From NCBI GenBank assembly GCA_951406725.2, contig OX597837.1:35960001-36024000 (forward strand): 64,000 bases of DNA, read 5' to 3'. Positions 5,559-55,250 of this stretch are shown here, one piece after another. The notes beneath the pieces were generated by a model that was given only the letters and a program-made list of their open reading frames with translations, was not told the origin of the DNA and did not search any database. How positions within the stretch are numbered: the first letter of the stretch is position 1; the number at the start of each line of letters is the position of its first letter. This DNA is from Octopus vulgaris (taxonomy: Eukaryota). The position numbers and the translations under genes were made by a program.

Positions 5559-6390
5559 CATTTTCTACAAGGCTCTTCCATCTATCTGGTATATTTGCAA
5601 GGCCCCTCTTCCAAAATTCATTTGTCCATGATGAAAAATACTCCTCAGCACAGTTCTGACCTCGTCTACAGAATTCATATTTTTTCCATTGAAATGATTT
5701 TAAAGACTGCAGAATAAATGATAATTAGATGGGGGCAATGTCTGGCAAACAGGATGGGTGGGGCATCGTTTCCCATTCAAACTGCTCTAGCCTTTGGAAT
5801 GCCATCCTTGCTGTATGTGGCTGAGCATTATCCTGATGGAGGAACACCTTTCGTCTTGAAACCAAAGATGGTCGTTTTCCTTCAAGCACAGCAATTGATG
5901 AATGATTGAATGACCAAATCCAAGCTTCTCTGCTAGTTCCTCAACAGTTACAATGACATTTTGTTCTACCAGGGTTTGCAGGACCTCCTCATTGAGCTCT
6001 ACAGATCTTCCAGGATAAGGCTTGTCTTCTAGGCTGTAGTTTCCGACTTGGGAATTTCTGGAACCACTGTTGATACTGGCTTACGCTTATTGCCTGATCC
6101 CCATATACTGCACTAATGTTCCCCACACTTTCCATTGCATTGTTGCCTTTATTGCAATCATAAAGCAAACTATTCCAAATATGCTCCTTTGTCACTTCCA
6201 TTATGGTTTTTGAAATAATAACTGTTAAAATCGAACTGCACTCTTCAAAACTTGCACTAAGAATAAGGACAAGTACAAGGTAAAATTACTGCCTGCTTTT
6301 ATAGCAAGTTGATGCAGGTAGTTTATCCCCTCCAGCTTTAAGTTCGTTCAATTGAAAAAACCACATTATTTATAGAATGACACAAAATAC
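5559..6390 (-). mobile_element. Internally deleted mariner transposon remnant
   Basis: N-terminal HTH MEVTKEHIWNSLLYDCNKGNNAMES...WFQKF, followed by decayed FLHQDNAQPH and PHPSCLPDIAPSNYHLF (YSPDLAPSD-like) catalytic motifs with stops and frameshifts. Confidence 0.85.
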
Positions 6391-52745: not shown

Positions 52746-54010
52746 ATCCAGTCCTTCTTCCCTAGGTTCACCACCCACTGGTATCACCTTTCTGTTCCCA
52801 TTCTTCCCCTGCCATCCCTGACAGACCAACAAATTTTAAAACTAAATTTCAACCACATCAAATGCATCACATATTGTCACAATATATTGAATTACAGGAT
52901 CATTCAGACAGGTAGAGTTCCACCCGTTTGGCCCAATGAAGGACAGTCTTCAAGGGACAAGGATTTGGGGCTCGCGGACTCTCGATGGGCTCACTAAACC
53001 AGGTGTCTTCACAAAAAAACGGGCACTCCAGTGGTTACAATGACGAGGGTTCCAGTTTATCTAATCAACAGAATAGCCTGCTTGTGCAATTAACCTGCAA
53101 GTGGCTGAGTACTCCACAGATACACATAATCTTAATGTAGTTCTCGGGGAGATTCAGCAAGATACAGAATAAGACAAGACTGGCATATTTTTTTTCTTTT
53201 TCACTTGTTTCAGTCATTTGACTGCGGCCATGCTGGAGCACCGCCTTTAGTCGAGCAAATCGACCCCCGGGACTTATTCTTTGTAAGCCCAGTACTTATT
53301 CTATCGGTCACTTTTGCTGAACCGCTAAGTGATGGGGACATAAACATACCAGCATCGGTTGTCCAGCAATGCTAGGGGGACAAACACAGACACACAAACA
53401 TATAATCTTTTACTCTTTTACTTGTTTCAGTCATTTGACTGCGTGCATGCTGGAGCACCGCCTTTAATATCTGAACTTTTTGTTTTCAAAGAGGGTGGCA
53501 GAGTTATGTTGAGTCATACATTTGTATCGAGGAAGAGATAATCTTTATCAATGTGGAATTTGAACCCTCTATCTCAGTCAGCAATCAGGCAATCAATAAA
53601 TTGGACTAATTAGTGGTACCCTTTTATTCGCTGTACAGCCCAAATCTGGTACCATCTGATTTCCACCCATTTTGATCCGATGAAGAACAGTCTTTAGGGT
53701 CAATGATTTGGTGAGACAGATGAGGAGAGAGTGATGGTGAAGATTTGGCTACAACCATGGACATCTGAACATTTTTCAAAGAGGATTTGGGATTGTTTTC
53801 AGTGATGGCACAAATGCATCGCTTGCAATGGAGAGACGACTACGTTGAGTCATACCTTTGTATAGAAGGAAGAGGTAATCTTTACCAATGTGAACTTTTA
53901 ACAATCTATCTCGGTCAGCAATCAAGCAATCGATAAATTGGACTGGTCTGTGGTACCCCTTTGTTCATTGCACAACCCAAATCTGGTACCCTCTGACTTC
54001 CACCCATTTG

Positions 54011-54152
54011 CATTATTTACATTTGACAGATATTTGTCCTCAACTTGTTTGTTATTAACACAACACTTCGGCTGATATACCCTCCAGCCTTCATCAGGTG
54101 TCTTGGGGAAATTTTGAACCTGAGTTCTCATTCCTAAGGTATTTTTTGATGA

Positions 54153-54196
<44 letters not shown>

Positions 54197-54436
54197 TCAA
54201 CTCTTGGAATCAAACTTGGAATCTTGGGGTTAGTAGCCCGCACTCTTAACCATTATGCCATATACATGTGGAATAAGAATCCAGGTTTGAAATTTCCCCA
54301 AGACACCTGATGAAGGCTGGAGGGTATATCAGCCGAAATATTGTGTTAACAACAAACAAGATGAGGACAAAATTTCCTTCAAATGTAAATAATGTAAATA
54401 ATGTACATAATTCCCCATCTCTTAAATTTAGAACTG
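54011..54436. mobile_element. Foldback element: inverted Penelope-type arms around (TTA)n and a tRNA-like head, with a 13-bp TSD
   Basis: Arms at 54011-54134 and 54270-54394. TSD ttccacccatttg (53998-54010) / ttccacctatttg (54437-54449). Minus-strand A box TGGCATAATGG (54250-54260) and B box GTTTGATTCC (54206-54215). Confidence 0.8.
54302..54347 (+). ncRNA. Minimal type-I hammerhead ribozyme motif
   Basis: Stem I gacac/gtgtt; core CTGATGA plus one extra A; stem II GGCTG/CAGCC; GAAA; U-A pair and AUU triplet within the palindrome AATATT. Confidence 0.6.
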
Positions 54437-55250
54437 TTCCACCTATTTGATTTAATGAAGGACTGTCTTCAAGGGAGAATGATTTGGGGACACGGATGAG
54501 GTGAAAGTGACTGTGAAGACCCTCTTACCAACTTGTGGTATTTGAAGGACCCACTTCAGGTAATCCTTTCTATTATAGGCACAAGGCCAGAAATTTTGTG
54601 GGGAAGGAGCCAGTTGATTAGATTGGCCCCTGTACACAACTGGTACTGAATTTATCGACCCCTGAAAGGATGAAAGGCAAAGTTGACCTCCGTAGGATTT
54701 GAACTCATAATGTAGTGACAGATGAAATGTCGCTAAGCATTTCACCCAGTGTGCTAACCATTCTGCCAGCTCCAGTTAATAAAATAGTAATGTCTTTCAT
54801 TGTATTACCTTTAGTACTACCCTTGTGTGTGTATGTGTGTGTGTGTGTGTTTATGTGGTTGTGGTGGTGGTGGTGTTGGCAGTAGTGTTGATTGTGGTGG
54901 TAGTTGAGGTGGTGATGATGTTGGTGGTGACAGTGATATTTTAATAATGGTGGTTGCTATTAAAAGGGGGGAATGGTGATGGTCATGGTTGTGGTGGTGG
55001 TGGCTATGGTGGGAAAGGCTGCGGGGGGGGATGGTGCACTTCCTCCCCACTCCACACCATGTTCCCTTTCTCCACTCGGCTCTCTTCCTGGTATTTAGTC
55101 ACCAAGGGATAAGAGGTGGGAGGGGGGCACTTCACCTCCACCCCCACCCAGCGACAGAGCAGATAGGTCAAGGTAGGTCAGATGAGGTGAGTTCAGGTGA
55201 GAAAACATTTTGAAAGAAAAACTTTGAGATGATTGGAATTAGGTTAAATT

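Follow-up and report, generated by a model that had tools for sequence, protein, structure and literature searches.

The closest described relatives of the repeat treated here are the Penelope-like elements (PLEs) of the EN+ Penelope/Poseidon type, for which the excerpts drawn on here (Poseidon_Ac, PMC11167929; Adineta Pen2a, PMC3846280; overview, PMC8557442) give a single ORF with a reverse transcriptase (RT) plus a GIY-YIG domain at the C terminus, the ORF starting within the pLTR. These elements occur as partial tandems with an inverted 5'-truncated copy and a short target site duplication (TSD), and have an optional one-sided tail of 30-40 nt, a hammerhead in the start of the ORF and two RT start sites, all as in the octopus family. 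According to the excerpted text of PMC11167929 the anole Poseidon protein nicks and extends both strands, RT starts at two internal sites which bound the tail, and hammerhead cleavage is dispensable. The variable upstream pattern reported below for octopus copies is described for PLE insertions in the relevant parts of PMC8557442 and PMC3846280. PLE promoters, so far as those excerpts go, are TATA/Inr-like and putative (Adineta, PMC3846280) or internal and LINE-like (D. virilis, PMC2377424). Unlike the Penelope/Poseidon elements described there, the octopus family has a pLTR beginning with an A/B box of tRNA origin and an (AAT)n tract. No title or abstract returned by the literature searches describes a PLE with a tRNA-derived promoter, and supplements, Repbase or Dfam may hold the family under another label.

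Metazoan PLEs carry minimal type I hammerheads, which the part of PMC4209133 used here describes as having a 5-bp stem I, one base left unpaired on the 5' side of stem II and, without any loop III, a stem III that is palindromic and needs a dimer; motif pairs lie on opposite strands 100-700 bp apart. The octopus motif, a putative ribozyme, shares all of this and shows no essential difference from that account. Hammerhead-bearing, PLE-related short repeats are also described in the available text on non-LTR retrozymes (bioRxiv 10.64898/2026.07.22.740005), but those form tandem arrays with at least two sense hammerheads and the octopus insert is a dispersed inverted pair. The retrozyme assignment was accordingly rejected, as copies of the insert are dispersed, inverted or single and not tandem sense repeats each with a hammerhead. 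The excerpted portion of PMC13282606 does not mention hammerheads.

In the sections of PMC10886601 drawn on here, retroelements that code for protein, non-LTR and LTR alike, are taken to be transcribed by Pol II, and Pol III is left to short SINEs and TRIMs without coding sequence. The same sections describe the TRIMp3 elements Cassandra, Helenus and Ajax, which have a small-RNA-derived Pol III promoter in the terminal repeat (tRNA-like in Helenus), as the octopus repeat would; they are short non-coding LTR elements whose autonomous partners are expected to use Pol II, whereas the octopus repeat is part of a coding PLE whose ORF is 2.4 kb long. The tRNA-derived SINEs (SINE2; octopus OK, OR1 and OR2, Ohshima and Okada 1994 as cited in PMC4758252 and PMC4824008) resemble it in an A/B-box head with a decayed cloverleaf, a simple-repeat tract and thousands of copies starting at the head, but the octopus Penelope head has no separate lineage. 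OR1 and OR2 are each cited there as CORE-SINEs, and no central domain is seen in the octopus Penelope repeat.

The insertion at 54011-54436

The window analysed is a stretch of 64,000 nucleotides of Octopus vulgaris DNA (contig OX597837.1). The insert within it is almost certainly a head-to-head pair of 5'-truncated pLTRs from a decayed Poseidon-type Penelope, and the same confidence extends to its route of insertion (Table 1). Its inverted arms, 54033-54142 and 54262-54371, are 89% identical over 110 nt, with 30 nt more at 87%; the two pLTR copies meet at a junction with 2 nt of microhomology, and the right arm has an extra tail of about 33 nt reaching 54436. The initial annotation had read here a 13-bp TSD with one mismatch, inverted arms around (TTA)n with an A/B-box segment on the minus strand, and CUGAUGA cores in both arms with GAAA on the plus and GAAG on the minus strand, and the coordinates and the arm alignment confirm this anatomy. 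Both the A and the B box of the window copy show CpG-type decay.

Table 1. Features of the insert and of its host sequence, in window positions
Feature	Position	Strand	Remarks
Host sequence	53505..54519	+	two tandem decayed pieces, probable mariner transposase; second piece split by the insertion
Left TSD, 13 bp	53998..54010	+	empty-site paralog at 53600-53743
pLTR arm with head, without tail	54011..54154	-	linker, ORF start codon 54131-54129, hammerhead; ends at inner RT start site
Minimal type I hammerhead, minus arm	54057..54102	-	core 54097-54091; GAAG instead of GAAA
(AAT)n tract between head and linker	54155..54192	-	length varies among copies; (TTA)n on plus
tRNA-derived head	54193..54271	-	A box 54260-54250, B box 54215-54206
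5' end of head			about 4 nt upstream of the tRNA-equivalent +1, from the 5'-end pile-up
Second pLTR arm, 5'-truncated, with tail	54270..54436	+	tail about 54404-54436
Minimal type I hammerhead, plus arm	54302..54347	+	core 54307-54313, extra A 54314, GAAA 54335-54338; palindromic stem III, GAAA-UAUU, predicted cut after 54342; layout as in the excerpt of PMC4209133
Right TSD	54437..54449	+	pairs with 53998-54010, 1 mismatch over 13 bp

The sequence around the insert is probably a mariner remnant, a label which follows a motif in the translation; Pfam gave no matches on the host pieces. The target is present once in the upstream paralogous duplicate of the host, which is therefore usable as an empty site. 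Other abundant short repeats, presumably SINEs, flank the host remnant at 53185-53466 and 54560-54780. Separate insertions elsewhere have identical or near-identical TSD sequences in common (L306 and L368; L076, L351 and L353), that of L306 and L368 occurs also in a common repeat of the window near 53273-53285, and this sharing suggests that host repeats contain recurrent target sites.

Stems I and II of the hammerhead fold as drawn, yet not beyond shuffles (z -1.3 and -1.1), and in the window copy the minus-arm hammerhead is predicted to be inactive. The initial annotation had looked to Infernal and the Rfam hammerhead models, and this search of the insert made no hammerhead call; a match to MIR7533 was discarded as reflecting the long hairpin only. 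Nor is the core conserved better than its surroundings, as had been expected of it, the values among copies being 0.937 for the core and 0.946 for other pLTR positions in a sample partly selected by the hammerhead. The one strongly polymorphic core position is N7, which is unconstrained (174 T and 54 A of 236).

The coding element and its tRNA-derived head

In two of the first 30 copies found with the head pattern, the head is immediately preceded by some 500-700 nt that appear to code for an endonuclease. A search with an endonuclease-like peptide gave 3634 candidates, 150 of them scored; the head follows the ORF stop at 16 of 20 endonuclease-selected loci (blastn), and in 50 of 59 long copies it lies about 35 nt past the stop of a Poseidon-type Penelope ORF, so that head, (AAT)n, hammerhead and tail are the coding element's own pLTR and not a separate SINE. 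Read in order, the 2.7-kb unit has its 2.4-kb ORF (RT, GIY-YIG) first; after a spacer of some 35 nt come the head and (AAT)n, then the start of the ORF, which contains the hammerhead, and last the tail. The ORF begins in the pLTR just past (AAT)n and holds the hammerhead in its first 25 codons. A single copy (L150) covers pLTR-ORF-head-pLTR, and a partial-tandem pLTR with the ORF starting inside it is seen in L150, L133 and L160.

RVT_1 is matched in the longer copies (E 2.9e-8), and homologues carry PF00078, PF28514 and PF26215, with PF01541 in two; the GIY-YIG domain is weak in Pfam (E 0.23 for P0005, with no match in the family's own piece). The hammerhead-encoded words at the N terminus recur in a homologue of 54% identity. 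Every copy seen is broken, and the non-CpG difference between the arms of one insertion is 7.5%. The family would be an EN+ PLE of the Penelope/Poseidon type, named from domain order, hammerhead position and sequence motifs. Thirty loci fetched from a GIY-YIG family search, with arm or head in none, belong to other PLE families and were reused as controls, and no relative is present in viral contigs. The Penelope-type arms with minimal hammerheads of the initial annotation are thus borne out, and the autonomous Penelope with the same arm that it sought was found as a decayed coding element (RT and GIY-YIG), which supports mobilisation by a Penelope RT.

The tRNA origin of the head, with its A and B boxes, also held up. 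Aligned to 25 distinct genomic tRNAs it reaches z 6.5 to tRNA-Arg(TCT) and tRNA-Cys, and a genome-tRNA profile finds less-decayed copies at E 3e-4 and 3e-3, the window copy being at E 7. The head retains consensus A and B boxes without the cloverleaf, and neither ARAGORN nor Rfam called a tRNA on the insert. In the genome searched (2.8 Gb, 227 contigs) there are 5235 exact matches to the hammerhead, 1710 to the head (30-nt pattern) and 410 to the spacer, with none for controls; given per-copy exact-match rates of 16/43, 7/50 and 11/57, these counts point, in order of magnitude, to ten thousand arms and to two thousand spacers. A pLTR follows within 700 nt in 61 of 72 head copies and the remaining 11 break off at or before (AAT)n into unrelated sequences, no donor SINE with the head and a different tail being seen among the 72. 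Unrelated sequence often interrupts (AAT)n or the head (L063, L077, L374, L392 and others), these being probably later insertions. The insert is almost certainly an ordinary truncated Penelope insertion from an unusual family, and its unusual part is the tRNA-type promoter sequence that opens the pLTR of a coding element.

Comparable segments were noticed at two related loci. A distant Penelope from a metagenome record (L411:2815-2990 and 5600-5741; tandem unit 2791 bp) has the same layout, its stop codon being followed in turn by an A/B-box-like segment, a short (AAT)n and a hammerhead; it has only two T4 runs per 2.8-kb unit, and its tRNA match is not significant (E 2.2). This lineage may have acquired Pol III-type transcription independently. 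In L424 (2513-2581) a clear tRNA-like sequence (E 2e-11) precedes the match to a related Penelope ORF by about 420 bp.

Pol III or Pol II at the head

The joint reading, a Penelope pLTR pair whose tRNA-derived A/B box serves as a Pol III promoter, seems to us the probable one. A cDNA primed within the 5' pLTR of the element RNA itself would extend to the RNA 5' end, and such runs would yield many head-to-tail short copies, so that a pile-up of 5' ends would mark where transcription starts, 13 nt ahead of the A box. Among 72 head matches (70 loci), 55 reach the second base of the head, and in 35 of them the end falls in the 12 nt that follow; the density of 5' ends is 0.053 per nt in this 12-nt interval, compared with 0.018 within the head and 0.0018 far upstream. 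In a sample of 72 hammerhead-selected arms the A box is reached by 32 and the spacer by 8. The pile-up has a G that places the A box at +14, and of the 8 copies that end one base upstream of this G, 7 are preceded, as judged by eye, by the letters which a folded-back cDNA end would add. A palindrome of 5 bp lies at the pile-up, as palindromes do at pLTR 5' ends in Adineta (excerpt of PMC3846280), and so fold-back alone may concentrate junctions there. Judged by eye, 30 copies that hold the ORF start include 5 which reach the 5' edge of the head, 4 of them running on into the previous ORF and 1 stopping, and 3 which stop inside the head.

Runs of T>=4 in the ORF number 0.54 per kb (233 segments, 147 kb, coverage at least 22), with no site common to more than 5 of 37 copies; six further retroelement ORFs of the same genome have 1.7-5.3 per kb. 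Synonymous shuffling gives zero T4 with P 0.056 under the element's own codon usage and 0.01-0.02 under control usage. Among related Penelopes (31 families from metagenome records, 79 loci), 4 of 31 are without T4 in the matched ORF range and 12 of 31 have fewer than 1 per kb; the mean of the 25 families of similar T content is 2.9 per kb, and the low-T4 relatives are mostly without a tRNA head. As proof of Pol III the T-run depletion was therefore downgraded, being strong against the same-genome controls and weak against same-clade relatives. Overall, Pol III use of the head would seem evenly poised. It is doubtful that the whole 2.7-kb unit of this coding retrotransposon, its mRNA included, would be made by Pol III from a captured tRNA promoter, with a terminator-free ORF and cap-independent translation, and we know of no route to translation here for an uncapped Pol III RNA. 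No RNA record is listed as containing the insert, and the RNA reads on a stretch of the ORF, about 100 per run in two runs, come in both directions and from many copies and are uninformative on the promoter.

The T-run-poor relatives and a TATA-like box, TATAA, 28 nt upstream of the pile-up keep a Pol II alternative credible if less favoured: Pol II would transcribe the same pLTR pair, with the TATA-like box at the ORF stop as its promoter and the head a passenger SINE remnant at the start of the 5' UTR. The box at -28 fits Pol II as well. TATA-like words stand 21-87 nt upstream of the core in 11 of the 15 relatives with a located core (20 examined), and without head and tract the TATA-to-core gap of the octopus element would be about 84 nt. 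T-run poverty is common in the clade, and the internal LINE-like promoter of D. virilis Penelope lies, in the excerpt of PMC2377424, within the pLTR. However, such a passenger would need a chance match of the start site with the 5' edge of the head and a chance absence of common T4 runs across the whole unit, and the donor SINE with another tail that it calls for does not appear among the 72 heads described above.

Copy architecture, integration and significance

The initial annotation had proposed a non-autonomous SINE/Penelope chimera. As an independent SINE with a tRNA head and Penelope tail, own source copies and movement in trans, this is very improbable, even though 56 of 72 head copies (about four in five) lack upstream coding sequence and a pLTR whose boxes are intact could be transcribed by itself. 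At the loci and long copies counted above, and in L150, the head is an original part of the coding element, and no difference between short and long copies survives correction over 216 positions (smallest p 0.0025, with 99-105 short and 76-84 long). A separate tRNA-SINE lineage was rejected, since the coding element itself has head and tail in one continuous stretch. A foldback DNA element of the MITE kind, whose terminal inverted repeats would be fixed, is scarcely conceivable and was rejected: both arms do occur in similar proportions in 25 of the 30 best whole-insert matches, selected for likeness to the query, but head-selected copies have the inverted part absent, short or as a full second copy, the ends are asymmetric, and there are neither fixed terminal inverted repeats nor a constant TSD.

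The whole-insert search returned at least 30 similar loci, chosen for two arms. The constant part in the first 30 head-pattern copies, as on the window minus strand, is head, (AAT/AAC)n, linker, hammerhead and one of two 3' ends, preceded by nothing, by a short inverted piece or by a whole inverted copy, so the foldback is not, as had been claimed, the mobile unit. In 69 head-to-head pairs from pattern-selected loci the tail is on one arm in 63, on neither in 6 and on both in none (p 1e-13), and where one arm has the head the tail is as often on the head-bearing arm (20) as on the headless one (20). Because the inverted arm varies and one arm alone carries the tail, the foldback must be built afresh with every insertion. 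Taken over 243 arms, the 3' ends form two clusters about 25-33 nt apart. The copy-specific TSDs that the initial annotation anticipated are found in 43 of 67 pairs, mostly of 11-14 bp, against 1.0 under shuffled pairing. Rare variants are shared within an insertion at 0.15 versus 0.063 +/- 0.011 at random (87 pairs, including similarity-selected loci).

For integration, the element protein would nick both target strands about 12 bp apart. On RNA from a single source, one cDNA would be primed where the tail ends and its partner at the inner start site, and the two cDNAs would then meet and join via microhomology. In the window copy the minus arm would run from the inner site to the 5' edge of the head, and the plus arm from the tail end to the linker.

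Ribozyme cleavage had been expected to define the RNA end, and it does not: the two sites of 3' ends are both downstream of the cleavage site, at about 50-60 and 84 nt from it, copies read through it, and cleavage therefore does not set their ends. Copy ends do not pile up at the predicted cut, beside which (position 83) 2 of 138 arms start. Short deletions beside the cut (pLTR hammerhead positions 33-37) occur in 16 of 117 arms, more commonly than elsewhere in the motif, and within pairs 3 of 21 are discordant and none concordant; slippage in a GT repeat explains them as well as a footprint of cleavage does. The hammerhead would simply be inherited with the pLTR and be uncut in those RNAs that got copied.

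Independently of the promoter, the thousands of short insertions are a genomic read-out of Penelope integration, in which the two target strands, with hardly an exception, are each primed at a different one of the two RT start sites. Published excerpts describe the one-sided tail qualitatively, and its count and the symmetry between arms found here constrain models of an RT dimer. The family is at risk of annotation as a SINE or a MITE. A coding Penelope with a tRNA promoter would, if true, break the Pol II rule for coding retroelements, and a SINE-like population could then descend from one element with no separate SINE involved.
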